Shown here piece by piece: positions 7,261-58,946 of a stretch of 64,000 nt of DNA; position 1 is the stretch's first letter; the number at the start of each line of letters is the position of its first letter. Source of the stretch: Candidatus Woesearchaeota archaeon. GTDB taxonomy: Archaea > Nanobdellota > Nanobdellia > Woesearchaeales > GW2011-AR9. Where the stretch lies: the NCBI GenBank assembly GCA_018696595.1, contig JABHQW010000008.1:268522-332521 (forward strand). The letters run 5' to 3'. The position numbers were made by a program, and so were the translations under genes. The notes beneath the pieces are model-generated. The model searched no databases. It worked only from the letters and a program-made list of their open reading frames with translations, and had not been told where the DNA came from.

Positions 7261-7299
7261 TATAAATGGCGAAGTATTTACAAGCTAAAAGAGGTTAAA

Positions 7300-7674
7300 A
7301 TGAAAAAAGAATATTTAATCATGTCTGTAGATGATGAGAATGATATCAGAGATTCTATTAAATCCGTTCTTGAAGATGAAGGTTTTAAAGTTGAAACTGC
7401 TAAAGATGGCGCTAGTATGCTTAAAAAGCTAGAAAAAATTAAACCAGACTTAATTCTTTTAGACATTTTAATGCCTGGTTTAACAACTCGAGAAATCATT
7501 ACTGAAGTAAAAAAAAGAAAAATAAAAACTCCTGTTATCTTTTTAACAGTAGTTAGATTAGCAGAAGCTACTAAAAAGCATGTTATTAAGGGTAATATGG
7601 TTGATTACATTGAGAAACCATTTGATAATAAAGATTTGATTAAAAGAGTTAAAAGAGCTCTGAAAACAAAATGA
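7300..7674 (+). CDS. Single-domain response regulator (CheY-like receiver)
   Basis: MSVDDENDIRD with acidic pocket. Phospho-acceptor context LILLDILMPG. Conserved K in IEKPFD. Confidence 0.85.
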   Translation: MKKEYLIMSVDDENDIRDSIKSVLEDEGFKVETAKDGASMLKKLEKIKPDLILLDILMPGLTTREIITEVKKRKIKTPVIFLTVVRLAEATKKHVIKGNMVDYIEKPFDNKDLIKRVKRALKTK

Positions 7675-8201
7675 AGACTACTTTAAAGAAAGAATTAGCT
7701 AAGAATAGCATCATTTTATTGGTAGTGCCAAACAAAGATTATAATAAAATTATTCTGCGAGAAGTTAAGAAACTTAAAGGCAAGAATATTTGTTATGTAA
7801 CCACAAATAAAGGTCATAGTGCTTTAGTAAACGATTTTGAAAAAAATAAGATTGATACCAAGAAATTCTTTTTTATTGATTGTGTAACTTCCACAATTCT
7901 TAAACCAAAAATAACTCCTCCGAATTGTGCTTTAGTATCTTCTCCTCGAGCTTTAACAGAATTAAGTTTGGCTATCAATAAGTTTGTAGATATTCATTTC
8001 CCATTAATCTTTATTGATTCTTTGTCTACTCTTTTAGTTTATCATAGTCCAAAAGTGTTGACTAATTTTGTTCATAGTTTAAGTACTAAAGTTAGAGAAA
8101 CTGGTCATGTGGTTCTAGTGATGACTATTGCCGATAAAGATAAGAAAACAGAATTATATAAAAAGCTACAAGTTTTAGCTGATAAAGTTATCAAAGTATA
8201 A
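7671..8201 (+). CDS. KaiC/RecA-fold protein lacking Walker A (DUF835-like). Start overlaps the receiver gene by 4 nt.
   Basis: Strand/helix pattern IILLVVP...ICYVTT...FFFIDCVTS...LIFIDSLSTLL...HVVLVMT resembles the KaiC/RadA core. No GxxxxGK[ST]. ATGA overlap with the receiver gene. Confidence 0.45.
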   Translation: MKTTLKKELAKNSIILLVVPNKDYNKIILREVKKLKGKNICYVTTNKGHSALVNDFEKNKIDTKKFFFIDCVTSTILKPKITPPNCALVSSPRALTELSLAINKFVDIHFPLIFIDSLSTLLVYHSPKVLTNFVHSLSTKVRETGHVVLVMTIADKDKKTELYKKLQVLADKVIKV

Positions 8202-8328
8202 TTATTTATTTCTTATTTTTGAAGATAATCAGAATTACCTTATTCTCAATAAATTTAAGTTTTTAACCAAAAACTTTATATATCTAAGATGCACACCATA
8301 TGCACAGGGGGTACACCCGGAGGTCAAA

Positions 8329-8583
8329 ATGGTTTATGCAAGAATAACTTTGAATGATTATGCAAATAAAGTACTTAATGTAGTTAAAGCTAAATTTAGC
8401 CTTAATGATAAGTCTGAAGCAATTAATAAATTTGTTGAAATGTATGGTGAAGAAGTAGTGGAGAAAGAAGCTAATGATGAATATGTCAAGAAAGTAATTA
8501 AAATGACTGATGAGCATATCAAAAAATATGGTTACCGAAAAATGAATCTAAAAGAATTAGATAAAATTAGTGGTTTAAATTAA
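8329..8583 (+). CDS. Putative antitoxin of a type II toxin-antitoxin pair
   Basis: 84-aa ORF immediately upstream of a RelE/ParE-like toxin (14-nt gap). Preceded by GGAGGT. Confidence 0.45.
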   Translation: MVYARITLNDYANKVLNVVKAKFSLNDKSEAINKFVEMYGEEVVEKEANDEYVKKVIKMTDEHIKKYGYRKMNLKELDKISGLN

Positions 8584-8596
8584 AGGGGTTTTTTAT

Positions 8597-8869
8597 ATGT
8601 TTGATTTTGATTTGCATGATAAATTAAGTACGATTCTTAGTAAGTTATCTAAAAAGGACAAAAAGAAAGTTGAGATTATCAATAAGAAAATTAAAGAAAT
8701 TATTGCCAATGACCATAAAACAATTGACAGGTATAAAAATCTAAGAACTCCGTTACAACATTTAAAGCGTGTTCATATTGACAAACATTTTGTTTTAACT
8801 TTTAATGTCGATAAAGAAAAAAACTTTATTTTATTCGTGGATTTTGCTCATCATGACACTGTTTATTAA
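8597..8869 (+). CDS. RelE/ParE-family toxin
   Basis: 90 aa. C-terminal HFVLTFNVDKEKNFILFVDFAHHDTVY is typical of RelE/YoeB-fold toxins. Confidence 0.55.
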   Translation: MFDFDLHDKLSTILSKLSKKDKKKVEIINKKIKEIIANDHKTIDRYKNLRTPLQHLKRVHIDKHFVLTFNVDKEKNFILFVDFAHHDTVY

Positions 8870-8886
8870 AGAATTAATTATAATAT

Positions 8887-10095
8887 CTAAGGTCCTTGAA
8901 TCTCGCCGAATACTTCTTGTTCAGGATAAACTGTTACACCTTTCTCACCAATACTCATCGCTACAATCTTGTTCTGATGAGAAGTACCACGTAATTTAAG
9001 GATCTCAATCGCTCTTTCCCTGATGTTGCCACGTTTGATGTTATAGATAACAATAACCCCATCGGCAAGGAACTCTTCAACACCAGTAGTAGAGAAAATC
9101 TTAGGAACTTGTTCAGTTTCCGTAATTAAAAGAGCAGTAGCTTTAATATTTTCAAAGAATCTGAACAACTGTTCAATATAAATTCTGTATGATTCATCTT
9201 TAGCAGTAAAAGCAGAAGCAATCGCAGTTAAAGAGTCAACAACAATAAAGTCCGGTTTGAAACCTTTTGGTAAAATCAACGGATCAACTTCAATCATTAA
9301 CTCACCTTTAGCTTGCATTAGAAGAGCATCTACACTACGAGTAATTTCAAAAGGATTAAATCGTTTAACATAAAATTGTTTCTTCTTAATATACTTTCTA
9401 GGATTCCAACCAAACTGTTCCATGTGTCCAATAAGTTTTTCTTCAGATTCTTCAAAACTCATCATAATACATTTCTTTCCTTCAGCAAGATGATGAAATA
9501 AAGTTTGTAAACAGAAAATAGTTTTTCCTGAACCTGCACCACCAGCAACTAAGATTGAACCGTTTTTTGGAATGCCATTATCAAGTAAGTCATCAAATCC
9601 AGGAACCCCTGTATAAATAAACCCTTCTTTAGCTGCAGTAGCATGGCTTCTTTCAAATTGAGATTTAATTTCTGCTTTTAATGAGCCAAGATCAAATAGT
9701 TTATTTCCTGTCGGTTTAGCTGCTACTGTTTCTTCTGTTGGAATTGTTTCTTTACCTTTCGAATCAACATCTTTTACGGTTTCTTGATCTCCTTTTGGAG
9801 CAATAATCTTATCTTTAATTCCTTTAAGTTGATTTTTGATTTTGTCTTTAATCACTACTTTTGTTTTAACTTGAGAAACTTTTACAGTAGGGATTTTCTT
9901 TCCTTTCTTCAATTTAGGTGTTGCAGTCAATTCTTTGCCTAAATGTTTAACAATTTTCTTACGTTTCTTTCTAATTTCTTGGGTTATAACTTTCTTTCTA
10001 GCAGGACTTACTTGATGGATATACTGCTTTTTCTCTTTATCTACTTTGTGCAGCTTCTTATTTCGAGCAGATTCGGCTTTACTTAATAATCCCAT
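8887..10095 (-). CDS. KaiC-like RecA-superfamily ATPase with a 160-aa lysine-rich N-terminal extension
   Basis: GVPGFDDLLDNGIPKNGSILVAGGAGSGKT (Walker A). FIVVDSLTAI (Walker B region). Single KaiC/RadB-like domain. Confidence 0.8.
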   Translation of the reverse strand: MGLLSKAESARNKKLHKVDKEKKQYIHQVSPARKKVITQEIRKKRKKIVKHLGKELTATPKLKKGKKIPTVKVSQVKTKVVIKDKIKNQLKGIKDKIIAPKGDQETVKDVDSKGKETIPTEETVAAKPTGNKLFDLGSLKAEIKSQFERSHATAAKEGFIYTGVPGFDDLLDNGIPKNGSILVAGGAGSGKTIFCLQTLFHHLAEGKKCIMMSFEESEEKLIGHMEQFGWNPRKYIKKKQFYVKRFNPFEITRSVDALLMQAKGELMIEVDPLILPKGFKPDFIVVDSLTAIASAFTAKDESYRIYIEQLFRFFENIKATALLITETEQVPKIFSTTGVEEFLADGVIVIYNIKRGNIRERAIEILKLRGTSHQNKIVAMSIGEKGVTVYPEQEVFGEIQGP

Positions 10096-15722: not shown

Positions 15723-18344
15723 CTATTCAATCTCAAATCGAAGTATAGCAGCAATGCCGCCTAAATCTCTAAGTTGTGCCCCTTCTCTAGTTTCTGTAGA
15801 AATAATCCTAACTTCTGCACCACCTGCTTGTGCCTTCTCTTCCAAATCAAAAATCTTATTTTCAGGAATACTCTCTGAAATTAGTAAAATGTCAACTGCG
15901 GCCATTTCTAAAGCTTTCAATGTTTCTTTCTCCCCATAAGTTGCTTTTTTGGGCGTATCTCTAAGAGTGCCTAAGAATTGTTGCATAATTTTTTTCTCGT
16001 GAGCAATTTCTTCTTCTGATAAAAGGTCTTCAGATTTTTCTAATAATTCTTGCAATCCAAAATCTCCGGTATACGATAAATCTTTAGTACCAATAATTTT
16101 TTTCTTTACATCTCCAGTAATATAATCTTTATTCATAAAATCGTTAATCGTAACACCGGGGCCACCAATAATAATGCCTTTCAAATCTTTTCCAAGAGGT
16201 AAGAATTGATCTTTCATATATTCTGCAATTTTTTTAAAATGATCTTTAGCAGCACCTTCTCTTAGACGAGCGAATCTTTGAGCAGAATTATGAACTATTA
16301 ATCCATTTGCTATGAAGTTTTGATTGCCAACAGAAATGTCAATCATTTCAGTTTCTTCATTTCTTTTTTCAATATTAGCAATCTTAACCGGCAAAATGGG
16401 GCTATTATAAACTTCTTCTAATTGTGTATATAATTTCTTATCTTTAACACAAGACAAGATAGAACTCTTAAATGTTTGTTTACTCATCATTCTCTCATTT
16501 CTAAAGAAGTTTGTTACTTTTGGAAATTGGTTTGTGTTGTAACCAGCGTTTTCAATTATCTTTCTGATTTTCGAACCAGAAGCAATAATTTGTCTGACAT
16601 TACTCTTATTTGATCTTAAATCAATACTCTTTTCTAATTTTTGTGATTTTTTATTACAAGTAAATCCAATTTGTTCTTTAAATAATTCTAAAGATTTCTT
16701 TTCTGTAATGTCAATTGTAAAGCGAGGATTATCACTTAGTGGATTTCTTCTATTGTCATATTCATGTAAAGAAGAAATGATTCCAAATCTTAACAAAGCC
16801 ATTTGTATTTGTTGTGCCAATATTTTGTTATTTATTCCAAATGCAGCCTGTTTTCTTTGAGAAACATAACCTTCTGCATCAAAAAATCCTTTCACAAAAC
16901 TTGCAAGAATTTTATTTGGAGAATTTAATATTTTTTCGGGAATTAAAGAATCTCTTGCTTTTTTTATTTCTGGAAATTCTGTTTGAATTAATCTAACTAA
17001 TGGTCTACTTGTAAATCTTAACTGGTGGTAATTCTTACTTTCTCTAAATTTATAACTACAATTCAGATCAAAGTGTTGATCAAACAATTCTTTATAATGT
17101 AAAGCAAGATCTTTACTTTGTTCAAAGAAAGTAATTCTATCTTTTTCTATACAACCATCACCCATTAGATAACCTAAAAATTGAGCGAGATTTGCTTCAA
17201 GAAGAACCGGCAATTTGATGTTTTTGTATAGTTCAGGAGTAGTATAGTTATTTAGGAAATCATAAAAATCAATTTCTAAGGCCGCACAAAGCTTTTGCAA
17301 AGGAATTCTTCCAATATTTCTTTTTCCTTTTTCGTAAGTTGATATTGCTGTTTGGGTAAGCCCAGTAAGTTTTGCAACATCTCTCTGAAATAAACTTTTT
17401 TCTTCTCGTTTTCTCTTGATTTGGTTTTGTCCTTCTTTATTTATTTTGAAAGAATTATAATATTGAACTGCTTTGATGGTTTGAAGTTTACCTTCTACTT
17501 CTATTTTTTCAGGCATAATTAGAAAATCTCCTTCTTGAAGTTCTTCAGCGGCTTTTTCTTTGATTCCATTCTCAGTTTTCACAAAGAAAATATGGTCTTT
17601 AGAAGATTCTACTTGTAGTCTTGGATATTTTGTTGTGATCTTGTAAACTTCATGTTTTTTGGCATTCCATTTATCTGTAATTGGTGAATCTTTAATTGAG
17701 TGACTTTCCATAACCATACTCTTGAGCACAATTGGGTTATGGGAATTTTCAATTTTTAAGATGTCTCCCTGAGTGGATTGAATTAATGTTCCTTTCATAC
17801 AACATTGTCCACCTGCTTTAGTTTTTCCAGGAACTTCCGAATGTGTTTTTTGCATTGGGACAATAGATTTTCCTTTCAACAGAGCAATGGTTGCATCCCT
17901 TCTATCCATAACAACAAGACCATAAACTTCTTTGTTAACCATCATTTCTTCTAATAAATCAGTTACAAAGTTTTTATCACAACGATAAATACGTGTGTTT
18001 AATTGGATTGGTGGTTCAATACTCCAAACTCGAACATCTTGTTTACCTTCTCCTGCGGCAACGTTTCCAGAAAAAACCGCAAAACCATTTTCTGGTGTGT
18101 TACCAATAGTTCTTAAATGTTGAATCATTTTTTCCAAAGCATTCTGGACATTCTTTCTAGTAGCAGCAGATTTAATGTTTGAAGCGGTTCCTTGCTCTTC
18201 TGCTAGATGTTGAATAATTTTTGTCATATCATAACCAGAAGGGATGTAAACTGTAACAAACTCTGTATGTGGAGCCTTATGGCTACGTAACTCACTTACT
18301 ATTTTTTTCAGTTTCAGTTTCTCTTGTGCGGTTATCGCTGCCAT
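15723..18344 (-). CDS. prf1: Peptide chain release factor aRF1 (eRF1 homolog) interrupted by an intein
   Basis: Exteins together are about 367 aa, with NIKS-like region and KTKAGGQ|SAQRFARLRE. The C-terminus GGIAAILRFEIE is eRF1-like. Confidence 0.9.
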   Translation of the reverse strand: MAAITAQEKLKLKKIVSELRSHKAPHTEFVTVYIPSGYDMTKIIQHLAEEQGTASNIKSAATRKNVQNALEKMIQHLRTIGNTPENGFAVFSGNVAAGEGKQDVRVWSIEPPIQLNTRIYRCDKNFVTDLLEEMMVNKEVYGLVVMDRRDATIALLKGKSIVPMQKTHSEVPGKTKAGGQCCMKGTLIQSTQGDILKIENSHNPIVLKSMVMESHSIKDSPITDKWNAKKHEVYKITTKYPRLQVESSKDHIFFVKTENGIKEKAAEELQEGDFLIMPEKIEVEGKLQTIKAVQYYNSFKINKEGQNQIKRKREEKSLFQRDVAKLTGLTQTAISTYEKGKRNIGRIPLQKLCAALEIDFYDFLNNYTTPELYKNIKLPVLLEANLAQFLGYLMGDGCIEKDRITFFEQSKDLALHYKELFDQHFDLNCSYKFRESKNYHQLRFTSRPLVRLIQTEFPEIKKARDSLIPEKILNSPNKILASFVKGFFDAEGYVSQRKQAAFGINNKILAQQIQMALLRFGIISSLHEYDNRRNPLSDNPRFTIDITEKKSLELFKEQIGFTCNKKSQKLEKSIDLRSNKSNVRQIIASGSKIRKIIENAGYNTNQFPKVTNFFRNERMMSKQTFKSSILSCVKDKKLYTQLEEVYNSPILPVKIANIEKRNEETEMIDISVGNQNFIANGLIVHNSAQRFARLREGAAKDHFKKIAEYMKDQFLPLGKDLKGIIIGGPGVTINDFMNKDYITGDVKKKIIGTKDLSYTGDFGLQELLEKSEDLLSEEEIAHEKKIMQQFLGTLRDTPKKATYGEKETLKALEMAAVDILLISESIPENKIFDLEEKAQAGGAEVRIISTETREGAQLRDLGGIAAILRFEIE
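16287..17804 (-). mobile_element. Intein (506 aa) inserted between GGQ and S of aRF1. Contains a LAGLIDADG homing endonuclease and an XRE-type HTH.
   Basis: Starts with Cys directly after GGQ. Ends ...NQNFIANGLIVHN followed by the Ser +1 residue. LAGLIDADG motifs LGYLMGDG and GFFDAEG. HTH LFQRDVAKLTGLTQTAISTYEKG. Confidence 0.85.
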
Positions 18345-48589: not shown

Positions 48590-48696
48590 GTTGGTAAGAA
48601 AAAGGTTAAGATATAATAAGTTTTGTGTTTGTGCTTAATCAACCCCTTTACAAAACAGAATACTTTATATATAAAAAGTATTTCTTTTATAGTAAA

Positions 48697-49908
48697 ATGG
48701 TTACACTAAATAAAAGAGGTCAAGCTGCTGGCGCAGCTGTTTTTCTGGCAGTAGTTGCCGGTTTACTAATTGGATTTATTATTTTAATTCCTCCCGCTGA
48801 GAGGGCAGAACTTTTAGGAGAAGATATTGATGTTATTGATAATAGTGATTCTAGCAGTTCTGATGACGAAATAGAAGAAGCAGTTCCAGAAGCTAATCTG
48901 TTAACTGTTTCTCCAGGAAGAATTGATTATCTTTCGCAGAAAGAGATAGAACATCCCTTGCCCGTTGTCAATATTTATACTAAAACTGAAAGTAAGATTC
49001 TAGCACAAAAAAATGTTGCTTATGCTAAAAATGGTGCATTTTCTAATGAACAAGGCGTGTTTAAGTTTAATGTTCCCGATTTAGACAATACTCAAGATTT
49101 CTTGCTAAATTTTAAAGTAAATGAGATTAAAGGAGACTTAACTGTTGATTTAAATGGTGAAAGTGTTTACAAATCTGCAGTTACTAGTGGTGAATCCTTA
49201 ACAGTAAGTTTTCCTGAAAACTTAATTCAAGAAGAAAATGAACTTATTTTTAGTGCTTCTTCAATCGGGGTTGCATTTTGGGCAACTAACGAAGTTAATT
49301 TAGAAGGACTTAAAGTTGTAGCTGATGTGACTAGTGTTGAAGCACAATCTTCAAAAAATATTTTCTTAGTTTCTGAAGTTGAGAAAAAGAATCTTGAAAA
49401 AGTTGTATTAAGATTTCAACCTGAATGTCAGTACACTGAAGTTGGTAAGTTAGAAATTCTGATTAACGGCAAAGAAATTTACTCTGCGGTTCCCGATTGT
49501 GAATTAGCAATGATTCCGATTGAGTTTTCTTCAGATATGGTTTTCCAAGGAGAGAACGAGATTATCTTTAGAACAAACAGCGGAACTTATATCTTATCGC
49601 ATGTAACAATTGAATCTGAATTGAAAGAATTAGAATATCCAACATATTATTTCGATGTTTCTTACGAACAGTATGAAGATGTAATGTCTGAAAAGAGAAG
49701 AATTCGATTAGAAATGGAATTTGTTGATGTTGTTGTAAGTAAATATGGTGAAGTTGTTTTCAATGGTCACACTAAACATTTTGATACTAAAGAAGTTGAT
49801 TATGTGATTGATCTGAGTGATGATTTAGTACAAGGAACAAATGCATTGAAAGTCAAACCAAAGAAGACGTTAGACATGAGAGAAATTAAGATTGATTTGG
49901 TAAAGTAA
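48697..49908 (+). CDS. Secreted/surface protein with an archaeal class III (type IV prepilin-like) signal peptide
   Basis: MVTLNKRGQAAGAAVFLAVVAGLLIGFIIL: a basic KRG, then Q+1, then a hydrophobic helix. Large beta-rich domain. Start chosen at an internal ATG behind an A/T-rich promoter. Confidence 0.55.
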   Translation: MVTLNKRGQAAGAAVFLAVVAGLLIGFIILIPPAERAELLGEDIDVIDNSDSSSSDDEIEEAVPEANLLTVSPGRIDYLSQKEIEHPLPVVNIYTKTESKILAQKNVAYAKNGAFSNEQGVFKFNVPDLDNTQDFLLNFKVNEIKGDLTVDLNGESVYKSAVTSGESLTVSFPENLIQEENELIFSASSIGVAFWATNEVNLEGLKVVADVTSVEAQSSKNIFLVSEVEKKNLEKVVLRFQPECQYTEVGKLEILINGKEIYSAVPDCELAMIPIEFSSDMVFQGENEIIFRTNSGTYILSHVTIESELKELEYPTYYFDVSYEQYEDVMSEKRRIRLEMEFVDVVVSKYGEVVFNGHTKHFDTKEVDYVIDLSDDLVQGTNALKVKPKKTLDMREIKIDLVK

Positions 49909-49956
49909 AATTTTTTATTTTATTTTTTTATTTATAATTTAACAAAAAAGAGGTTA

Positions 49957-51921
49957 ATGATGGGAAAAGCAGCGGCGATAGGTGGAGCATTAAAGAGCGC
50001 AGGGTCTAAAGTTACTCCTGGATTAACAGGTGCTGGTGCCGGTGCAACAGCTGTAGCAACACAAAGTGCAGCTAAGTCTTTCAGAAACAAAGGTTTCCCA
50101 TTGTTTTTAGCAGCAGTAATTATTTTTATCATTTCACAGGTTCTTGGTCTTTCCGACTTTTATGGTTATGCTTCAGTATTGTTTATGGTCTATTGTGCAT
50201 ATGCTGTTTTTGAAGGACGGGGCGCGTACATCGTAACTATTTTTTGTGTTTGGTATTTCTTATTAGGGAGAGCTAGCTTAGAAAGTGTTTTATACTATGT
50301 TGTGCCAATTGCTTTAATTGGTTCAATAATTCACGGGTTATTGGGAAAATTTAAAAGCAAAGATACTTTTGCTCATGGTTTTACTGAAGAGATTCTTTAC
50401 GGTCTTGGCGCAATATTAATTTTCTTTCTGGATATTGGTCTGGTTGAAATGGTCTCTCAAGGAGTCGTAAATTTACCTTACATTCTTACTGAAATCTTAA
50501 GGTTAATTCCTTTGTGGGGGTATGTGGGTTTGTTTGTGATGATTCAAGACGAAGAGAAAGGAGAAAAAAGTTTCTTTATTACAGTCGCAAAGTGGCTTGG
50601 GATTGCATACCTCGTTTCTATTATTATCTTCGCTTCTAGTATTGCTTCAGGGGCTGAAGGGGAAGAATTACTTCCAGGTATAGAACAATTTATTGAGGCA
50701 AAGGAAACTGCTCAAGGTAAATTTGCGAAGACAGAGAACCCTGCTTATTCTAACCTTAAATGTGTGGTCCAAGGAAGATTTAACGATCTGCCGGTTTGTA
50801 TAAAAGATCGTCAAGATGATTCTAAAAGAAAAGTGGCTTGTGAAGCAGAAGGTTTCCCAGAAGGAACTACTAGTTTTAATGAATGTACTGCCGAGTTAAA
50901 AGAACTTGATAATAAGAATATCAATGTTGTTGGTTTTAACGATAAAACAATTAAAGAACCAATTACTGCAGAATTAATTCCTAAAGAGGCAAAGAAGTAC
51001 GATTTACTTCACGAGAAAGGACAAGCAATTAAAATTCCAATAGATTTGGAAATAAAGAATCCTCGTTTAGATCCATTTGAAGTTTATGTTTCATGTAACA
51101 TTACCACCCAGAGAAGGAAAACTTCTATTGGCGAAGCAGAAATTGTGGGCTTTGAAAATAAGGGGGAAAATAATGAGAAAGGAAGCAAATGGAAACATTT
51201 TACCATTTATAAAACAGAATCATCTATTCCTTTAATTTGTCAACCTACTAAGTTAGATTACGAATTAAATGAAGAAACGAGAATATTTAATGGTTCTTAT
51301 AATGTTGTTTTTTATGTTGAATTTAAAGGAGTAAACACAACTTCTAGATTAGAAAGAAGTTTTTTCAATGACTTAAAGATTTACGATGAAATTAATAAAA
51401 TTAAAGACTTAACATCTGAACAAGAACAAGAATTAAGGGGAAAAGCCAGAAAAGATTTTGAAGAAGAGATGAAAGAATTCCTTAACCTTAAATATTCTTC
51501 AATAGAAAGTCGTCATTCTACTGGTCCTGAAGATTTCGCTAGAATCGATTTTTCTTTTGGTCCTTCAGAAGGAGAACCGATTATTGAAACTTCAGATTCC
51601 ATTTCTTTTGAAGCAGATGTGGATAATTTAGGTAATGGAAAAATAACAAACATCAATAGTTATAATTTTATTGGTTTTAATGGGGTGACTTTTTCTGGTT
51701 CTGGTTGTAGTCTAAGTGGATCTTTAAATGTCCCTCAGAAATTTATGAAATCTTCAGGAATCCCCATACATCTCTGTTGGGTTGACAATCTTCCTGAAGA
51801 AATGGCTAACCCTGCTTTGGGAGACGAAACAGTTGAATTCCGAGCAGAATTGGAGTACGATTACTTAATTGAAAGAGAAGTGGGAATAACTGCGGGAGTG
51901 ATTGATGATAAAAGCAAATAA
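49957..51921 (+). CDS. Large membrane protein with about 7 N-terminal TM helices and a 450-aa Cys-containing extracellular domain
   Basis: Hydropathy profile. No known motifs. Co-oriented with, and 49 nt downstream of, the pilin-like gene. Confidence 0.55.
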   Translation: MMGKAAAIGGALKSAGSKVTPGLTGAGAGATAVATQSAAKSFRNKGFPLFLAAVIIFIISQVLGLSDFYGYASVLFMVYCAYAVFEGRGAYIVTIFCVWYFLLGRASLESVLYYVVPIALIGSIIHGLLGKFKSKDTFAHGFTEEILYGLGAILIFFLDIGLVEMVSQGVVNLPYILTEILRLIPLWGYVGLFVMIQDEEKGEKSFFITVAKWLGIAYLVSIIIFASSIASGAEGEELLPGIEQFIEAKETAQGKFAKTENPAYSNLKCVVQGRFNDLPVCIKDRQDDSKRKVACEAEGFPEGTTSFNECTAELKELDNKNINVVGFNDKTIKEPITAELIPKEAKKYDLLHEKGQAIKIPIDLEIKNPRLDPFEVYVSCNITTQRRKTSIGEAEIVGFENKGENNEKGSKWKHFTIYKTESSIPLICQPTKLDYELNEETRIFNGSYNVVFYVEFKGVNTTSRLERSFFNDLKIYDEINKIKDLTSEQEQELRGKARKDFEEEMKEFLNLKYSSIESRHSTGPEDFARIDFSFGPSEGEPIIETSDSISFEADVDNLGNGKITNINSYNFIGFNGVTFSGSGCSLSGSLNVPQKFMKSSGIPIHLCWVDNLPEEMANPALGDETVEFRAELEYDYLIEREVGITAGVIDDKSK

Positions 51922-52774
51922 AATTATTGGGATTGTACTTCTTTCCTTATTTCTATTAGGTTGTGGTTCTGGTGGTGGAACAAAACAAATAGATTATAAT
52001 TTTAAGCAAGGCACTTCTGGATTACAAGTAAGTTTTATGGATAATGCTCCTCCAAAAAAGATTTACGAAAACTCTAATTTTAATGTTATTCTTAAAATGG
52101 AGAATAAAGCTGCTTATGATTTGGTTAATGGCCAAATAACTTTATCTGGGATTAATCCTCAATATTTTGTTTTTGAAAAAAAGACTGAAACCTTTTCTAT
52201 TTTAGAAGGACGGAACTTATATCTTCCAGATGGAGGGGTCTCTTATATTGAATTTCCTGCAAAATCCGAGAAATTATTTTTAAATGCAGAAAGTTATCAA
52301 GGAAAGTATTTTCTAAACATTGATTTTGATTCAACAATGGAATTTGTTGATACTATTTGCATTAATCCCAACTTATATTCAGTATACGATGCAGGGTGTC
52401 AAATTGAAGATCGAAAATCTTATTCTGGTCAAGGTGCTCCTCTTGCAGTTGTTGAAGTTGAAGAAATAATTCATCCTGAAACTGTTGGTGGGCAAGTCGA
52501 GTTTAGATTTTTGTTAAGAAATAGAGGCCAAGGAGAAGTTGAATATATTGAACTAACTAAGGCTATGCTCGGTAGCAGTGAATTTGATGAATGTAAGTTT
52601 AAAGAAGGATACTTTGATAGTAAAAAAGTATTACTGACAAAACAGAACCAAGAAGCATTATTAGTTTGTAAAACACATTTAAAAGAACAGGGTTCTTATA
52701 CTACAACTGTATTGCTTGATTTTAATTATCATTATGAAATGCAAGAAGTTCATAATCTAATGCTTTATGAATAA
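51905..52774 (+). CDS. Putative lipoprotein/secreted protein (LLGC lipobox-like signal)
   Basis: MIKANKIIGIVLLSLFLLGCGSGGG. Overlaps the upstream gene end by 17 nt. Confidence 0.5.
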   Translation: MIKANKIIGIVLLSLFLLGCGSGGGTKQIDYNFKQGTSGLQVSFMDNAPPKKIYENSNFNVILKMENKAAYDLVNGQITLSGINPQYFVFEKKTETFSILEGRNLYLPDGGVSYIEFPAKSEKLFLNAESYQGKYFLNIDFDSTMEFVDTICINPNLYSVYDAGCQIEDRKSYSGQGAPLAVVEVEEIIHPETVGGQVEFRFLLRNRGQGEVEYIELTKAMLGSSEFDECKFKEGYFDSKKVLLTKQNQEALLVCKTHLKEQGSYTTTVLLDFNYHYEMQEVHNLMLYE

Positions 52775-52829: not shown

Positions 52830-53336
52830 ATGGTGATGGGGAAAACAACATTCTTAGTAGTTTTATTGTTATCATTCAGTTTTGTGCAAGCTGGATTTTA
52901 TGATGGTTTCTTTGATCGGTTTGATGATCCTACATTAAATGTTAAATTGGAACAGCAACTATTATTTTCTTCTCCATTTGATTCTCTTGATGTTCCTGTT
53001 GTTGCTGAGAAAGTCGTAGTTCCGGTTACTAAGAAAATTATTGTTCCAGTTACTAAAGTGAAAAAGGTAGAAATAACACTTCCCCCTATCATTAAAATAA
53101 CTGATTCTGGGTTTGAACCAAAAGAAGTTAAGATTCAGAAAGGTCAGACTGTTGTCTGGAAAAATGAAAGGAAGAGGGTTAATTCTTTGGTTTACGGTTT
53201 AAGAGAGATTGTTGACATGAAAAGCGAATTTATTCAACCAGGGGATGATTTCAGTTGGACTTTTGAAGAGAAAGGAGAGTTCACTTATATTGATGCAGTA
53301 GTTATCGGTAGGGTTGGCAAGGTTATTGTTGAATAG
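52830..53336 (+). CDS. Small secreted protein with a cupredoxin-like beta-sandwich signature but no Cu ligands
   Basis: Signal peptide MVMGKTTFLVVLLLSFSFVQA. KEVKIQKGQTVVWKNE and FSWTFEEKGEFTY resemble cupredoxin strands, but the His/Cys/Met ligands are absent. Confidence 0.45.
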   Translation: MVMGKTTFLVVLLLSFSFVQAGFYDGFFDRFDDPTLNVKLEQQLLFSSPFDSLDVPVVAEKVVVPVTKKIIVPVTKVKKVEITLPPIIKITDSGFEPKEVKIQKGQTVVWKNERKRVNSLVYGLREIVDMKSEFIQPGDDFSWTFEEKGEFTYIDAVVIGRVGKVIVE

Positions 53337-53376
53337 AATCACAATTATTTTAAACTCTAACTAATTCTTAACAAAC

Positions 53377-54321
53377 ATGAAAATCGCAATCTTAGGTGGG
53401 GGAAGTTGGGGTACAGCTTTAGCAGTACACTTAGCTAAAAATGATAATGGTATTAAAGTCTGGGAATTCTTTGAAGAACAGGCTAAAGAAATGCAAGAAG
53501 GAAGAGTTTGCAAATTACTCCCAGAAGCAAAGTTGCCAGAGAACATCTTTGTTTCTCATAAAATTGAAGAAGTGTTATCTGATTTTGAATTATTGTTATT
53601 AGTGGTTCCTTCAAATCATGTTGAGAAAACAATTGAACAAGCTAAAGAGTTTATTCAAGAACAAGCAGTAATTATTTGTTCAAAAGGATTTGGTTCAGAT
53701 TTAAAATTCTTAAGTGATGTTGTCAAAGAAAAAATTTCTGGAGAAGTTTATTGTTTATATGGTCCAACTCATGCGGAAGAAGTTTGTAAAGACATGTATT
53801 CTGGAATTGTGTTGGCTGGTGGAAAAGGTAAAGAAGGACTTCAGAAAGTTATTGCATCTGACAGTTTGAAAGTAGATTTAACTGATGATCTAATTGGCGT
53901 GCAAGTTGCTGCTGCTTTGAAAAATATTTTAGCAGTATTTGTTGGCGTACTTGACGGCATGGGTTTAGGAGATAACGCTAAGGCTTACATCATGACTCGT
54001 GGCTTGCAAGAGATTAAGGATGTTGGTGTTGCTCTAGGAGCGAAAGAAGAAACGTTCTACGGTCTTGCAGGCATTGGTGACATGATTGTAACATCTACAA
54101 GTCCACATTCTAGAAATAGGTCTGTGGGGGTAGAAGTTGGTAAAGGTCGTAAATTACAAGAAGTAATCGATGAAATGGCAATGGTTGCAGAAGGAGTAAC
54201 AACGTTGAAAGAAGCCATTGGTCTGAAAGAGAAGACGGGATTGGAATTACCTTTGATTTCTGGTTTGTATGAAATTTTGTTTGAAGGAAAAGATCCGCAG
54301 GAAATACTGAAAGGAATTTGA
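53377..54321 (+). CDS. gpsA: NAD(P)H-dependent glycerol-3-phosphate dehydrogenase (bacterial-type GpsA)
   Basis: MKIAILGGGSWGTALA Rossmann. GPTHAEEV. SPHSRNRSVG signature. Confidence 0.85.
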   Translation: MKIAILGGGSWGTALAVHLAKNDNGIKVWEFFEEQAKEMQEGRVCKLLPEAKLPENIFVSHKIEEVLSDFELLLLVVPSNHVEKTIEQAKEFIQEQAVIICSKGFGSDLKFLSDVVKEKISGEVYCLYGPTHAEEVCKDMYSGIVLAGGKGKEGLQKVIASDSLKVDLTDDLIGVQVAAALKNILAVFVGVLDGMGLGDNAKAYIMTRGLQEIKDVGVALGAKEETFYGLAGIGDMIVTSTSPHSRNRSVGVEVGKGRKLQEVIDEMAMVAEGVTTLKEAIGLKEKTGLELPLISGLYEILFEGKDPQEILKGI

Positions 54322-54683: not shown

Positions 54684-55034
54684 ATGAATGATAAAATCTG
54701 GGCTACGATGAATGTTTCTCTAGTTTTGGTAGCATTGATTTTAACTTTAACTTTGTTTGAAGTAGAACTGCCTACGTTAGGGCAAGCGAAATATGCTTTA
54801 GACAAATCAGAACCTTTATGCATAGTTAATTGGCAAGATTCTTACAATGAATGGAATGATCTAGATTCTTGTTGTGTTGAAGCAAGGAAACAGTTAGATT
54901 GTTCTGAAGGAGAATGGTATTATCAAGACAAAACCGTAGAGTGGCAATGTAAAACCGGTTCTGGAAATGTATTAAAGTACTGGTTGAATGATAAAGCTTA
55001 CAATTATTGCAGACAATTGAATATTTGGAGATAA
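54684..55034 (+). CDS. Small TM-anchored Cys/Trp-rich extracellular protein, hypothetical
   Basis: TM VSLVLVALILTLTLF, then 8 Cys. Confidence 0.4.
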   Translation: MNDKIWATMNVSLVLVALILTLTLFEVELPTLGQAKYALDKSEPLCIVNWQDSYNEWNDLDSCCVEARKQLDCSEGEWYYQDKTVEWQCKTGSGNVLKYWLNDKAYNYCRQLNIWR

Positions 55035-56135
55035 ATGGCTAAGAAAAAACAAAAAAAGAGTAGGTGGAGTTTACAGCAGAAAGTTTTCCTAGTTCTAATT
55101 ATCATTGTTTTAACTTTAGGGAGTTTAAATGTTGCTAAAGCTAAAGGTTGGCTAATTCCTGAACAACCAGAAATCATAATTGTCGATAATACTATTTTAT
55201 TAGATTCATTAACTTTAGAACAAAAAATTGGTCAGATGGTTATTGTTCACGGAGGGTTATGGAATTTAAAACCATGGCAAGATATGCAACTTGGTGGCAT
55301 ACATCACTTCGCGATGCAAACTCCTGAATTATTTCAAGATATAACTGCAAAGTTTCAAGAAGATATGCAAATCCCATTCTTTGTTACTGCAGACTTAGAA
55401 GGTTGTTGGAGTCCTTTTTCTAATTTCAAACAGTTTGTTCCTGTTAATGAAATCAACACAACTGGTGAAGCTTTTGAGAAAGGTTCGATTGAAGGAAAAT
55501 ATTTGAAAGAACTTGGATTTAATTTTAATTTTGCTCCTGTTGTTGATTTAGATGACCAAATTTGGAACTGCCGTGCTTTCCTTGGCAATGAAACTCAAAT
55601 AACTCAATTAGCAGAAGCTTATGCTATTGGATTACAAAACGAAGGTATTATTGCTACTGCAAAACATTATCCTGGAAACACTTTAGTGGCGAATGATCCA
55701 CATAAAGGATTAGTTATAGCGGAGATTAGTTCAGAAGATCAATATCCTTACAATTACTTTTCGGAGAAAGGAAATATTCAAGCAGTTATGGTGACCCACA
55801 TAATCGCTTTTGGTGAAGTAGATTCTAAGGGGGTCCCTTCTGTGGTTTCTGAAGAAGCTGTTGGACAACTTAAGGATGAATATTCTGGGTTAATCGTTAC
55901 TGATGATACAATGATGTTGGGGTTAAGAAATTTTTTCCCTTCCACCGAGGATATGTATGTTGCTGTGTTTAAGGCTGGGAATGATTTAATTATTAACTTT
56001 GATGAAGATCCCAATGAAATTAAACACATGATTGAAGTTGTTCAGGGGGCGGTTCTTGCTGGAGAAATTCCTCAAGAACAAATTGATGATTCTGTAAAAA
56101 GAATTTTGGAAGCGAAAGGCTTTATTGTTGGGTAA
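55035..56135 (+). CDS. Glycoside hydrolase family 3 N-terminal domain protein (NagZ-like beta-hexosaminidase), membrane-anchored
   Basis: KHYPGNTL...DPHKG and GLIVTDDTMMLG match the GH3 catalytic blocks. N-terminal TM. Confidence 0.6.
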   Translation: MAKKKQKKSRWSLQQKVFLVLIIIVLTLGSLNVAKAKGWLIPEQPEIIIVDNTILLDSLTLEQKIGQMVIVHGGLWNLKPWQDMQLGGIHHFAMQTPELFQDITAKFQEDMQIPFFVTADLEGCWSPFSNFKQFVPVNEINTTGEAFEKGSIEGKYLKELGFNFNFAPVVDLDDQIWNCRAFLGNETQITQLAEAYAIGLQNEGIIATAKHYPGNTLVANDPHKGLVIAEISSEDQYPYNYFSEKGNIQAVMVTHIIAFGEVDSKGVPSVVSEEAVGQLKDEYSGLIVTDDTMMLGLRNFFPSTEDMYVAVFKAGNDLIINFDEDPNEIKHMIEVVQGAVLAGEIPQEQIDDSVKRILEAKGFIVG

Positions 56136-56190: not shown

Positions 56191-56913
56191 TCATTTCTTA
56201 TTAGTTTTTAAGTGTAATGTTTTATTATCTATCTCTATTATTTCTTCTTGTTTTATTTTCTGCCATTCTATGTTTGGTAATTGCGGCAATTCTTCTGAAC
56301 TCACAATCAAAAAATCTTTTTTCTTTCCCATTTTCATTTGGTAATACTTTGGTTGGTTATTCTTTTTAATGAACACATAAGATTTATTTCTATTAGCTAG
56401 GATAAAATTTATTCCAGTGTAATTTTGATATTTGTTAAGATTATTTCTAATGGCTTCTATTATATTTTTTTCTTTTTTATTCTCTGTTAGAATCGAACCA
56501 AACAAATGTTCGGAATCTGTGTCTCCTTTAACCGTAAATTTAGAATCATAATAAATTTTATCTCTAACAGTGCCATTATGGCAGAAAATAAATTCATTAA
56601 GTTGGAATGGGTGTGTATTTTCCATCGAAATTTTCCCAATTGTCACTTTTCTAGCATGTAATATCACTAAATTTGTTTTTACGTTTCTGAATTTATTAAC
56701 TTTGGGATCTTTGAAAATAGGTTTTGTTGATTTTTCTACTATCCACCTATTATTCTCTAAATAAGCAATCCCCCAACCTCCGTCATGTTTCCAGTTGCCA
56801 TTCTTGTTTTGATTTCTTTCGTGTTTTTCATTTTCGTCATTGGCCATAGTGACCAAACCATCTAGAAGTAGATTAACATTTACATTTCCAACCGCAATTA
56901 ACATCCGACACAT
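56191..56913 (-). CDS. Class II (Ntn) glutamine amidotransferase-like protein (YafJ/EgtC-type)
   Basis: N-terminal MCRMLIAVG (Cys2 nucleophile). LHARKVTIGKISMENTHPF. FCHNGTV. Confidence 0.7.
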   Translation of the reverse strand: MCRMLIAVGNVNVNLLLDGLVTMANDENEKHERNQNKNGNWKHDGGWGIAYLENNRWIVEKSTKPIFKDPKVNKFRNVKTNLVILHARKVTIGKISMENTHPFQLNEFIFCHNGTVRDKIYYDSKFTVKGDTDSEHLFGSILTENKKEKNIIEAIRNNLNKYQNYTGINFILANRNKSYVFIKKNNQPKYYQMKMGKKKDFLIVSSEELPQLPNIEWQKIKQEEIIEIDNKTLHLKTNKK

Positions 56914-58124
56914 TGTTCAAGGTAACTTTGTTGTTTGTGGGGTTGGTAATCTAAACTTTTTAAATATTCCTGTCTCATAAACAATTGGCCCTGGGCTGCG
57001 GCTTTCTCTGGGTTGGGGTACGGTCCTTTTTCTTTTAAATGTTCCATGATTTTATTTGATGGGTTCATTCTTGTTTGGATCATACCAAAAATTGGTGTTA
57101 AGTACGGAAGATCTTCTTCTGGCAAACCTTCGGATGAGAATTTTAATGTGTCTGATAAATATTGAGCAACATTATTTGACATTAACCCATATTTGATAGC
57201 TTCTGTTTCAAGGGCTTTAAGCGTTGTATAATTTGGTAACACTACTTCTTTATTATCAAATGAATAAACCCCATCTGTTCCTGATATTCTAACTGGGATG
57301 TCTTCTTTTGTTATTCTGTCATTACATCCTTTATACAATGCAATCATGCCTAAAGAGATATCCAAAGGGGTTGTATCAAAACTTCTAATTTCCCACGTGC
57401 CGGTTTCTCCAATTGAATCTCTTTTTCTAATTGGGTGATATCCTGTGCTTTCTGGTTTGAAAAGTTCTTTGAATGCCTCCCTGTCTGTACCTGGTGCGTT
57501 CAACCATTGGTTGAATCTAATGTTATCTCTTATATTAATTTCTTCAATTGATTGAACATAAGGCTGAAGTTGAGCATGTAATGGATAATCCATAAACATT
57601 TGATTTCGTGTCGCATTGATCCTGTGGCAATTAACTCCTTCATTAATTCCATTTAACATTGGTGAGGTTGATGTAGTAGCATAAGATAATGGGTCTAATG
57701 CTGTGAATAACCACATTTGTTCTAAAAGATGATTTGGTGATTGTGAGAAATGGCCATGTATTCCTGATATTCTTCTTTTTAAATCGTTGGCTTCCTGGCC
57801 AATTATTGGGATATAAAGACTCCACTTTTCTTTGTCGTGTCTTTGTTGACTTTCCCCTCCTCCTAATTCACTAACTGTACTAACAGAAATATCATGTTTA
57901 TCACAAATCTCTTCTAATAAATTGAGTTTTGGAAGAATTCCCCTATGTAATTCTTTAACTGTGTTTGCTGGATCTGAGTTCACTTCTACTCTGGCATGGT
58001 TGGATTCATCTACAATTGATCCATCATTTAAAGGATCTTCAATTATTTCTTTTGCCCTATTGGCTAAATAACCTTGCTCATCAATTAAAGCAAATTCATA
58101 TTCTATCCCTGTTGTTGAACTCAT
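56898..58124 (-). CDS. Carboxylate-amine ligase, GCS2 (glutamate-cysteine ligase family 2, YbdK-like)
   Basis: N-terminal TTGIEYEFALID is the GCS2 hallmark. About 400 aa. Overlaps the downstream amidotransferase gene by 16 nt. Confidence 0.6.
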   Translation of the reverse strand: MSSTTGIEYEFALIDEQGYLANRAKEIIEDPLNDGSIVDESNHARVEVNSDPANTVKELHRGILPKLNLLEEICDKHDISVSTVSELGGGESQQRHDKEKWSLYIPIIGQEANDLKRRISGIHGHFSQSPNHLLEQMWLFTALDPLSYATTSTSPMLNGINEGVNCHRINATRNQMFMDYPLHAQLQPYVQSIEEINIRDNIRFNQWLNAPGTDREAFKELFKPESTGYHPIRKRDSIGETGTWEIRSFDTTPLDISLGMIALYKGCNDRITKEDIPVRISGTDGVYSFDNKEVVLPNYTTLKALETEAIKYGLMSNNVAQYLSDTLKFSSEGLPEEDLPYLTPIFGMIQTRMNPSNKIMEHLKEKGPYPNPEKAAAQGQLFMRQEYLKSLDYQPHKQQSYLEQCVGC

Positions 58125-58346
58125 CTTATCATAATTTTTTTATTTTATACTTTTGATTTTTCTTATCTTTTAGTATAGGTAATAGTACACTAATATATAA
58201 ATATTTCTGCAATGGAGTGCTTAAATGGTCTCTTAATCTATTTATTGGTTAATAAAATGGCCAATCCTTAATTCTAAAGAATAATTATTATATGGATTGG
58301 ATTTAAAAGCTAAAAATTGCCTTTATTTGTATTTTGGCAGTCATAA

Positions 58347-58946
58347 TTAAGAGAATTCAATCATTCGGTGATCACGAAATTTTTTTGTTTCCAAAGTATA
58401 AAACGCTTCTTCCATCAATTTTTCGGGTACAGATATACCACCTAAAGCAGGGTCAAAAATATGATAATAATGATTGGAATGTCCAAAAACAACAATAAAA
58501 TTGGAGGTATTTCTTTTTTCATTTCTAATTGGTTTAGTATTTACTCTAAGAAGAAGAATCTTATTTTGATTTAATTTACTTTTAATGTTTACAAGATTGA
58601 TGGTTTTCTCCTCGATTTTAACACCTTGTCTTTCTGCTTCTTTAAGGTGTTGTTTGGAAGAAAACTTTGCTTCTTCAATCTCTTCTTTTTTATATCTATA
58701 AAAACGATAATCTGGGAAGTTATACTCTTTTTTTTCTACAATTACTTTTAGGTTTAATCCTTGTTCTTTTGCATAAGTGGCTAAAGCAAAAATAGAAGAA
58801 CCTCTTGTGGGTAAATTAACTGTTTTTCTCCAAATCTCAAACTCTTTTTCTTTAGTTGCTTTTATTCTTGAATCTAAAGTGGCAAGGATAGTAAGTAATG
58901 AAGAAGCTGCTGTTGTGAAGGGTGTTGTTTGATTGTGGGTTTGCAT
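58347..58946 (-). CDS. Peptidase C39-like/papain-fold domain protein with the catalytic Cys replaced (Q...TTAASS), His/Asp retained
   Basis: QTTPFTTAASSLLTILATL aligns to the C39 Q...CGxAAL block. VVFGHSNHYYHIFDPA aligns to the His/Asp block. Confidence 0.35.
   Translation of the reverse strand: MQTHNQTTPFTTAASSLLTILATLDSRIKATKEKEFEIWRKTVNLPTRGSSIFALATYAKEQGLNLKVIVEKKEYNFPDYRFYRYKKEEIEEAKFSSKQHLKEAERQGVKIEEKTINLVNIKSKLNQNKILLLRVNTKPIRNEKRNTSNFIVVFGHSNHYYHIFDPALGGISVPEKLMEEAFYTLETKKFRDHRMIEFS

Follow-up and report, generated by a model that had tools for sequence, protein, structure and literature searches.

At the core of the 'lipid divide' lies the stereochemistry of the lipid backbone: archaea use sn-glycerol-1-phosphate (G1P), bacteria and eukaryotes sn-glycerol-3-phosphate (G3P). 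The G3P-forming dehydrogenase GpsA has been reported from Woesearchaeota three times (Yokobori 2016, PMC5059525; Coleman 2019, PMC6431249; Castelle 2021, PMC8204110), and the very protein described here is annotated at NCBI, where a 100% identical entry is named 'NAD(P)-dependent glycerol-3-phosphate dehydrogenase [Candidatus Woesearchaeota archaeon]', GpsA; the occurrence of the enzyme in this lineage is therefore already known. DPANN archaea have been described as lacking EgsA (PMC5059525), and Woesearchaeota as lacking GGGPS, DGGGPS and electron-transport chains and as mostly fermentative (PMC8421398). Some Woesearchaeota encode bacterial FabG/I/Z, a cyclopropane-fatty-acyl-phospholipid synthase and homologues of bacterial genes for ether and membrane-spanning lipids (PMC10936187, PMC11868695).

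What the G3P is for has been discussed before. The distribution of PlsC and PlsY across DPANN bins is patchy, and a part for archaeal GpsA in lipids seemed unlikely to Coleman et al. (PMC6431249). A lipid hypothesis for such GpsA proteins has nevertheless been published (PMC8204110, PMC11868695), in one case as remodelling of host lipids (PMC11868695), an idea for which we found no experimental test in the literature. In CPR bacteria that lack fatty-acid synthesis, G3P dehydrogenase, PlsY and PlsC are kept, and these organisms are believed to rebuild lipids that they scavenge (PMC7242380).

Results

A bacterial-type GpsA with an intact active site

The window, by which we mean the whole 64-kb stretch of DNA analysed, carries an intact gpsA reading frame of 314 aa that opens with ATG (Table 1). 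An earlier note on this DNA, made from the letters and their translations, had called the product a clear GpsA on the strength of two motifs, GGGSWGTALA and SPHSRNRSVG, while allowing that it might group with a different NAD-dependent dehydrogenase family. Both motifs are present, at residues 7-16 and 242-251 (the latter at nt 54100-54129), and Pfam, NCBIfam and PDB searches agree on GpsA and not on another such family. In Pfam, three models match far above their gathering scores: NAD_Gly3P_dh_N (PF01210; E = 2.9e-36, residues 2-147), NAD_Gly3P_dh_C (PF07479; E = 4.8e-52, profile positions 1-141 of 142) and, for the bacterial C-terminal sub-domain, GPD_NAD_C_bact (PF20618; E = 4.6e-18). The protein passes the NCBIfam subfamily cut-offs of NF000942 (311.2 against 257 bits) and NF000940 (268.9 against 202) and reaches none of the lineage-specific 'equivalog' cut-offs (best NF000941, 313 against 423), as is expected of a divergent clade. 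The best match in the PDB is Thermotoga maritima GpsA (1z82; E = 1.2e-51, 179 bits, residues 1-311), followed by the Coxiella (3k96) and Leishmania (1evy) enzymes; the match to the Archaeoglobus enzyme (1txg) is much weaker (E = 4e-33, 118 bits). By all criteria that can be applied to a sequence, assignment to the bacterial GpsA family is secure.

Table 1. Features of the gpsA gene and its upstream region (positions in the window)
Feature	Position	Strand	Basis
gpsA CDS, NAD(P)H-dependent sn-glycerol-3-phosphate dehydrogenase	53377..54321	+	ORF, Pfam, NCBIfam, PDB, identical NCBI protein
Rossmann dinucleotide-binding motif GGGSWGTALA, aa 7-16	53395..53424	+	Aligned to GAGSWGT of 1z82 and 3k96
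Lys103 codon (SKG)	53683..53685	+	Aligned with active-site K of SKG/TKG/IKG in 1z82/3k96/1evy/1txg/2pla
Lys182-Asn183 codons (ALKN), substrate-binding/catalytic pair	53920..53925	+	ALKN/SVKN/AVKN in 5/5 solved homologues
Asp235...Thr239...Ser-Arg246-Asn-Arg248 segment GIGDMIVTSTSPHSRNRSVG, phosphate-/substrate-binding loop	54079..54129	+	Alignment to solved GPDHs
TATA-box-like hexamer TTTAAA, start 28 nt upstream of ATG	53349..53354	+	Conserved upstream alignment
BRE-like purine-rich element CACAATT, directly upstream of TATA-like box	53340..53346	+	Conserved CAyAA pattern

The residues expected of a working enzyme are in place. GGGSWG at residues 7-12 conforms to GxGxxG, and the longer motif around it is kept across the DPANN clade. 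In an alignment with 1z82, 3k96, 1evy, 1txg and 2pla, K103, K182, N183, D235, T239 and R246 fall on the residues that bind substrate or take part in catalysis, which in human GPD1 are Lys120, Lys204, Asn205, Asp260, Thr264 and Arg269. The GIGD and SRNR segments match those of 1z82 and 3k96, with a counterpart in human GPD1L (2pla) that reads GVAD...GGRNR. After strand beta-2 lies the sequence VWEFF, whose Trp-Glu pair is invariant within the DPANN clade; an acidic residue at this place often accompanies a preference for NADH. In the predicted enzyme, NAD(P)H would be bound by the N-terminal Rossmann domain and dihydroxyacetone phosphate (DHAP) would be held by the C-terminal helical domain through Lys103, Lys182/Asn183, Asp235, Thr239 and Arg246, so that hydride transfer would give sn-G3P. 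The reductive direction, DHAP to sn-G3P, is the one favoured by thermodynamics. Because the catalytic residues are all intact and the gene is under purifying selection (below), the step that the earlier note took from GpsA to G3P formation is a reasonable one, and G3P synthesis by this predicted enzyme is very likely.

We also weighed whether the GpsA fold might here serve a changed substrate, such as another 2-oxo or hydroxy phosphate ester, or the other stereoisomer, in which case no sn-G3P would be supplied. The protein passes NCBIfam models at the subfamily level and not at the equivalog level, and the clade stands apart as a short form (308-322 aa), both of which could be read in this way. 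However, all substrate-binding and catalytic residues of characterized GPDHs are kept, the alignment to solved GPDH structures, GpsA among them, runs end to end, and native T. maritima GpsA equals the short form in length to within a few residues. A change of substrate is thus very improbable.

gpsA resides in a conserved archaeal housekeeping block

The chromosome is that of a DPANN/Woesearchaeota archaeon, and the archaeal context that the earlier note had supposed is borne out by ribosomal and housekeeping markers within the window. A ribosomal protein operon contains S4e, L32e and L19e, which are specific to archaea and eukaryotes, together with a Sec61-type SecY, and further archaeal markers include fibrillarin, Nop56/58, aRF1, NFACT, Pelota, PheRS, S3Ae, Cbf5, TrmB and eIF-1A. 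The aRF1 gene is split by an intein. Within these 64 kb, gpsA sits mid-window with archaeal markers on either side, and GC content is even along the window, at about 0.28-0.36. Scans for tRNAs and Rfam families over the window and six loci gave no matches.

The arrangement recurs widely. An identical GpsA is found on at least 24 contigs, up to 496 kb long, with the same neighbours and from independent assemblies of many samples. In species-representative genomes our scan found 40 loci, of which about 25 are from DPANN; the DPANN proteins are 57-88% identical to the window protein, and identity drops to 31-40% at the bacterial loci. The DPANN loci are labelled Woesearchaeota, Nanoarchaeota or, in TPA bins, 'uncultured Methanosarcinales', the last of which is probably wrong since these bins share the DPANN synteny. 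In 12-18 DPANN loci, the shared block runs from PheRS beta/alpha, TrmB and Pelota to gpsA, a convergent glutaredoxin gene and, further on, S3Ae, a metallophosphoesterase and Cbf5, with three membrane or secreted proteins of unknown function and then a cupredoxin-like ORF between Pelota and gpsA. The same synteny around gpsA is seen in about 20 DPANN genomes, and the recurrent neighbours identified across the clade are L31e and S19e, the others being proteins of unknown function. As to the cupredoxin-like ORF upstream, we considered whether it corresponds to the CuA 'nosZ-like' protein of ODZ DPANN (PMC10936187), which is ruled out as it has no Cys/His. Against six orthologues, gpsA shows a dN/dS of 0.06-0.12, indicating strong purifying selection.

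Upstream of gpsA, TTTAWA begins at -31 to -28 in 22 of 25 orthologous DPANN loci, against a background of 2% for randomly chosen positions and 23% for the regions preceding other ORFs (≥150 aa). In the upstream alignment, T28 to A33 are invariant or nearly so, and the CAyAA element that precedes them has an invariant A22 and A23 and a C19 that hardly varies. The box is absent upstream of gpsA at the bacterial locus L024, described below. From this spacing we infer an archaeal BRE/TATA promoter giving a leaderless mRNA, with a BRE-like function ascribed to the purine-rich element by analogy with known archaeal BRE/TATA architecture; gpsA would then be transcribed alone, from a start predicted to fall at 53377 or no more than a few nt from it.

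Because the gene is bacterial in type and MAG labels are unreliable here, with many orthologous loci tagged 'uncultured Methanosarcinales', it might be taken for a contaminant from bacteria, the product of a chimeric assembly or part of a mis-binned contig. We give such an artefact almost no credence. Archaeal markers flank gpsA on both sides, GC is uniform, an archaeal-type promoter element lies upstream, and contamination or mis-binning is refuted outright by an arrangement assembled independently in many samples and retained across about 20 species-level genomes. Synteny, promoter element and purifying selection together show an old, vertically inherited and domesticated gene, which is neither contamination nor a recent transfer. 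It now behaves as an ordinary resident of a conserved archaeal housekeeping block, maintained by strong purifying selection.

Phylogeny points to a bacterial origin

A simple distance tree (neighbour-joining, Kimura distances, 90 sequences, 316 columns, 100 bootstraps) supplies the phylogeny that the earlier note had proposed as a check for horizontal transfer, and places the DPANN copies with bacterial GpsA, far from Archaeoglobus. The 24 DPANN sequences are monophyletic with 65% bootstrap support, join L024 and four cluster representatives in a 91% clade, and sit with these inside a 78% clade of short forms (308-322 aa); A. fulgidus GpsA (1txg) falls outside this 78% clade. Deeper nodes of the tree have support of 20-33%.

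The closest outgroup, L024, probably comes from a CPR bacterium, as indicated by one marker gene, for peptide deformylase, and the Saccharibacteria label of its record. The L024 gpsA is part of a glycolysis cluster that also holds genes for TIM, aldolase, a 2-hydroxyacid dehydrogenase, PFK, PGK and GAPDH. When the cluster representatives at 50% identity were searched exhaustively and the hits named by look-up, the nearest named bacterial relatives proved to be Firmicutes, at 42-47% identity. They include Fenollaria and Clostridium grantii at 42-44%, and a representative at 47% belongs to a spore-former with the canonical der-plsY-gpsA-spoIVA arrangement. These comparisons suggest a donor that was either CPR-like or Firmicute-like; bootstrap support at the deeper nodes is at most 33%, and the nearest named clusters are Firmicutes only. 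On our reading, gpsA entered the ancestry of these Woesearchaeales (DPANN) in the distant past from a bacterium related to CPR or Firmicutes and was passed on vertically thereafter. Taking the identity of the enzyme (bacterial-type GpsA, EC 1.1.1.94) and this evolutionary history of its gene as a joint claim, we hold it with considerable confidence.

Lipid and glycerol genes around gpsA

The earlier note had gone on to suggest that GpsA could support bacterial-type lipids or the scavenging and remodelling of host lipids. This part finds no local support: no lipid-backbone or acyltransferase genes were detected in the window and its flanks. Our Pfam scan took in every window ORF of 100 aa or more that we regarded as a real gene, leaving out opposite-strand ORFs nested in larger genes. 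Neither plsX, plsY, plsC, CdsA and PgsA nor egsA, GGGPS and DGGGPS were found in the 64-kb window plus 10 kb on each side, from a genome of about 1 Mb; PF02660 and PF01553 had no match in the window ORFs or flanks, and CarS was absent from the scanned window ORFs and 10-kb flanks. A bacterial phosphatidic-acid module (GpsA with PlsX/PlsY or PlsB, and PlsC) is accordingly not recognizable at the gpsA locus. Among the recurrent gpsA neighbours identified across the DPANN clade, none is a lipid gene.

A tblastn search with two PlsY queries over the window and 26 loci (about 0.43 Mb, of which about 0.37 Mb is orthologous DPANN sequence) gave nothing below E = 0.17, while PlsY was recovered beside gpsA in four bacterial loci that served as positive controls (L037, L038, L045 and L046). 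Since the search was negative and its controls positive, we conclude that the bacterial der-plsY-gpsA linkage has been lost in DPANN.

Possible uses of the G3P

According to the literature, the organism would be fermentative, with neither an electron-transport chain nor archaeal lipid synthesis, and GpsA would tap DHAP at the triose-phosphate node. The reading that we prefer, tentatively and with real doubt, is that the G3P serves as the backbone on which lipids are re-assembled or remodelled using scavenged acyl chains of a bacterial partner. Here the Mollicutes and CPR bacteria would be the model for rebuilding lipids on a G3P backbone, and re-oxidation of NADH would come as a side benefit. 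A hint of such a partner comes from a membrane-anchored, NagZ-like GH3 enzyme encoded in the window.

GpsA could instead act as a redox valve that re-oxidizes glycolytic NADH during fermentation and has no lipid role; by analogy with yeast GPD/GPP, the G3P may be dephosphorylated to glycerol and excreted. The invariant Trp-Glu pair would fit a preference for NADH, no acyltransferase lies near gpsA, and the nearest outgroup, L024, has its gpsA among glycolytic genes and not with plsY. Moreover, in one Woesearchaeota locus (L020), gpsA is directly followed by a HAD-family hydrolase gene, and Woesearchaeota have no electron-transport chains and rely on fermentation (PMC8421398). However, the HAD neighbour occurs in that one locus only, the glycolytic linkage belongs to the bacterial relative and not to the DPANN loci, and the reported fermentative sink of Woesearchaeota is lactate dehydrogenase (PMC8421398, PMC10936187). 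Diversion of DHAP would also lower ATP yield, which is hard on an energy-poor symbiont. We consider a pure redox valve possible, if somewhat unlikely.

A further alternative is that the enzyme runs in reverse, feeding G3P into glycolysis as DHAP, with the G3P drawn from host glycerophosphodiesters or phospholipid head groups, or from glycerol by way of GlpK. Thermodynamics disfavours the oxidation of G3P with NAD, and in catabolism this step normally falls to the quinone-linked GlpD/GlpA. An envelope-degrading symbiont, as the GH3 enzyme suggests this one to be, would meet G3P-containing compounds, GlpK has been reported from some Woesearchaeota (PMC6431249), and by the account of Nishihara 1999 relayed in PMC6431249, G3P dehydrogenase and GlpK serve glycerol metabolism and not lipid synthesis in several archaea. 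Against this, glpK, glpQ/ugpQ and a G3P transporter are absent from the window, its 10-kb flanks and the recurrent gpsA neighbours, and the protein groups with biosynthetic bacterial GpsA. Catabolic use is therefore unlikely.

A bolder extension of the remodelling reading is that bacterial-type glycerolipids based on sn-G3P, assembled or repaired with GpsA and acyl chains from a bacterial partner, stand in the place of any archaeal lipid pathway, possibly with bacterial-style lipidation of lipobox proteins. Upstream of gpsA, at a remove of two genes, lies a lipobox ORF (51902), and there is an LspA homologue just beyond the window. We regard this version as improbable; if true, these would be archaea with a largely G3P-based membrane and a natural crossing of the lipid divide.

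Discussion

What is new in our analysis is modest and consists of the clade-wide synteny around gpsA, the archaeal promoter element, the dN/dS values, a CPR-like sister in a glycolytic context and the lost linkage to plsY. These points strengthen the case for a functional and old gene; they do not settle the use of its G3P. Nevertheless, an archaeal lineage that has lost the G1P route and in which a bacterial G3P-forming enzyme is kept under strong selection in many species offers a natural test case of whether bacterial-type or mixed membranes can sustain an archaeon, and may also help to identify the hosts of Woesearchaeota.

EgsA, the G1P dehydrogenase, likewise uses NAD(P)H to reduce DHAP, yielding a glycerol phosphate for the lipid backbone, but is not homologous to GpsA, having an Fe-ADH/DHQS-like fold and the opposite stereochemistry; no EgsA domain was found in this GpsA or elsewhere in the window. 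The characterized archaeal GpsA, the NAD(P)-dependent G3P dehydrogenase of A. fulgidus (1TXG), shares fold and family with the window protein and also comes from an archaeon, yet is far more distant from it than the T. maritima enzyme. As it branches away from the DPANN clade, the two are best seen as independent acquisitions or lineages.

Biosynthetic GpsA proteins of bacteria (T. maritima 1Z82, Coxiella 3K96 and the Firmicute enzymes) have the same two domains, motifs and catalytic residues, at 40-47% identity. Their hosts differ from the Woesearchaeota host, for which the literature gives no known fatty-acid or phospholipid pathway. In the Firmicute der-plsY-gpsA operon, gpsA is coupled to der and plsY, whereas the DPANN copy lacks this coupling and carries an archaeal-type promoter element.

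Reduced-genome bacteria that scavenge lipids (L024 and, among Mollicutes/Tenericutes, L033) hold the closest relatives of the DPANN proteins in the tree, L024 sharing their 91% clade, and are alike in lifestyle, being ultrasmall, low in GC and auxotrophic for lipids (PMC7242380). The difference is that these hosts are bacteria, which use G3P lipids and keep PlsY and PlsC (PMC7242380), and that the gpsA of L024 lies among glycolytic genes.

The closest counterparts of all are the GpsA proteins already published from Woesearchaeota (PMC5059525, PMC6431249, PMC8204110). Some of the genomes of Castelle et al. have gpsA beside MEP-pathway or UbiA genes, whereas the loci of the clade studied here do not, no such genes being seen beside gpsA in the window, its flanks or the clade's recurrent neighbours. 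Gene family, lineage and the reading of a bacterial origin are the same throughout, and in nothing essential do the published proteins differ from the product of the window gene.

Membrane or secreted proteins upstream of gpsA

The run of three membrane or secreted proteins that lies ahead of gpsA, the gene for the bacterial-type glycerol-3-phosphate dehydrogenase, is kept in 13-19 DPANN loci, and its 654- and 290-aa ORFs overlap by 20 nt; together the three may form a cell-surface complex. The lipobox ORF at the end of this stretch begins with a Sec signal followed by a textbook lipobox (...LSLFLLGC/GSGGG), and a gene for an LspA-type signal peptidase II occurs in the same contig family. The window and its flanks, 84 kb in all, showed no Lgt. 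Because bacterial-style lipoprotein maturation takes a G3P-based lipid as its donor, a link between lipoprotein maturation, as represented by the lipobox ORF and LspA, and GpsA is possible.

The cupredoxin-like protein encoded next to gpsA is conserved in 7 related loci and matches its Pfam family at 3e-5, which is under the gathering score. It contains neither cysteine nor histidine, and copper binding is therefore not possible. For the same reason we rejected its identification with the CuA 'nosZ-like' protein reported for ODZ DPANN (PMC10936187).

Features discussed in the text, with positions in the window unless another sequence is named
Feature	Position	Strand	Description
Membrane/secreted proteins	48625..52774	+	Three large proteins (427, 654 and 290 aa); no Pfam match
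Lipobox ORF	51902..52774	+	Two genes upstream of gpsA; Sec signal and lipobox at start
Cupredoxin-like protein	52830..53336	+	Secreted; immediately 5' of gpsA; Pfam Cupredoxin_1
Cys-rich protein and GH3	54684..56135	+	Secreted/membrane protein (116 aa); membrane-anchored GH3
GATase_4, GCS2 and peptidase	56191..58946	-	Peptidase is C39-like/DUF3335
Lipoprotein signal peptidase II	L048 7936-8418		Peptidase_A8/LspA-type; about 1-2 kb past the window's right end
aRF1 with intein	15723..18344	-	Peptide chain release factor
Signalling genes	5584..10095		Histidine kinase, response regulator, two KaiC-like ATPases
Glycolysis cluster	L024 9106-19305		Compact; includes gpsA

Genes downstream of gpsA

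Downstream, the stop of the Cys-rich ORF and the start of the GH3 gene are adjacent (55034/55035), and the pair is common to 8 DPANN loci. The GH3 protein is a NagZ-like beta-N-acetylhexosaminidase, and the pair suggests that sugars from bacterial cell walls are processed, in keeping with a bacterial partner. Beyond it, the genes for a class-II amidotransferase and a glutamate-cysteine-ligase-like protein overlap and are followed by that for the peptidase; this order, partially conserved among related loci, may be tied to small thiol or peptide metabolism.

Other features of the window

With its intein, which contains an HTH_3 domain as well as a LAGLIDADG homing-endonuclease domain, the aRF1 product reaches 873 aa, where a normal aRF1 has about 410. 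Elsewhere, a PAS-HisKA-HATPase kinase and a single-domain response regulator, a bacterial-type two-component system, sit beside KaiC homologues, a notable arrangement for a reduced DPANN genome. Across the window and the DPANN loci, about 23% of the ORFs that are 150 aa or longer have TTTAWA beginning 26-34 nt 5' of the predicted start codon. The rate at random positions is 2%, and the excess suggests widespread leaderless transcription in this genome and its DPANN relatives.

Related loci

Public TPA MAG loci labelled 'uncultured Methanosarcinales archaeon' (L001, L002, L006, L007, L009-L011, L014, L017-L019, L021 and L039) resemble the window: their gene order is of the Woesearchaeales type and their GpsA is 45-88% identical. 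These labels are probably wrong. In L024, the CPR-labelled (Saccharibacteria) locus with the nearest GpsA relative of the DPANN clade, gpsA is grouped with genes for a DEAD helicase, TIM, a DeoC/LacD aldolase, a 2-hydroxyacid dehydrogenase, PFK, PGK, GAPDH and PfkB, a glycolysis cluster, unlike the der-plsY-gpsA setting that is usual in bacteria.
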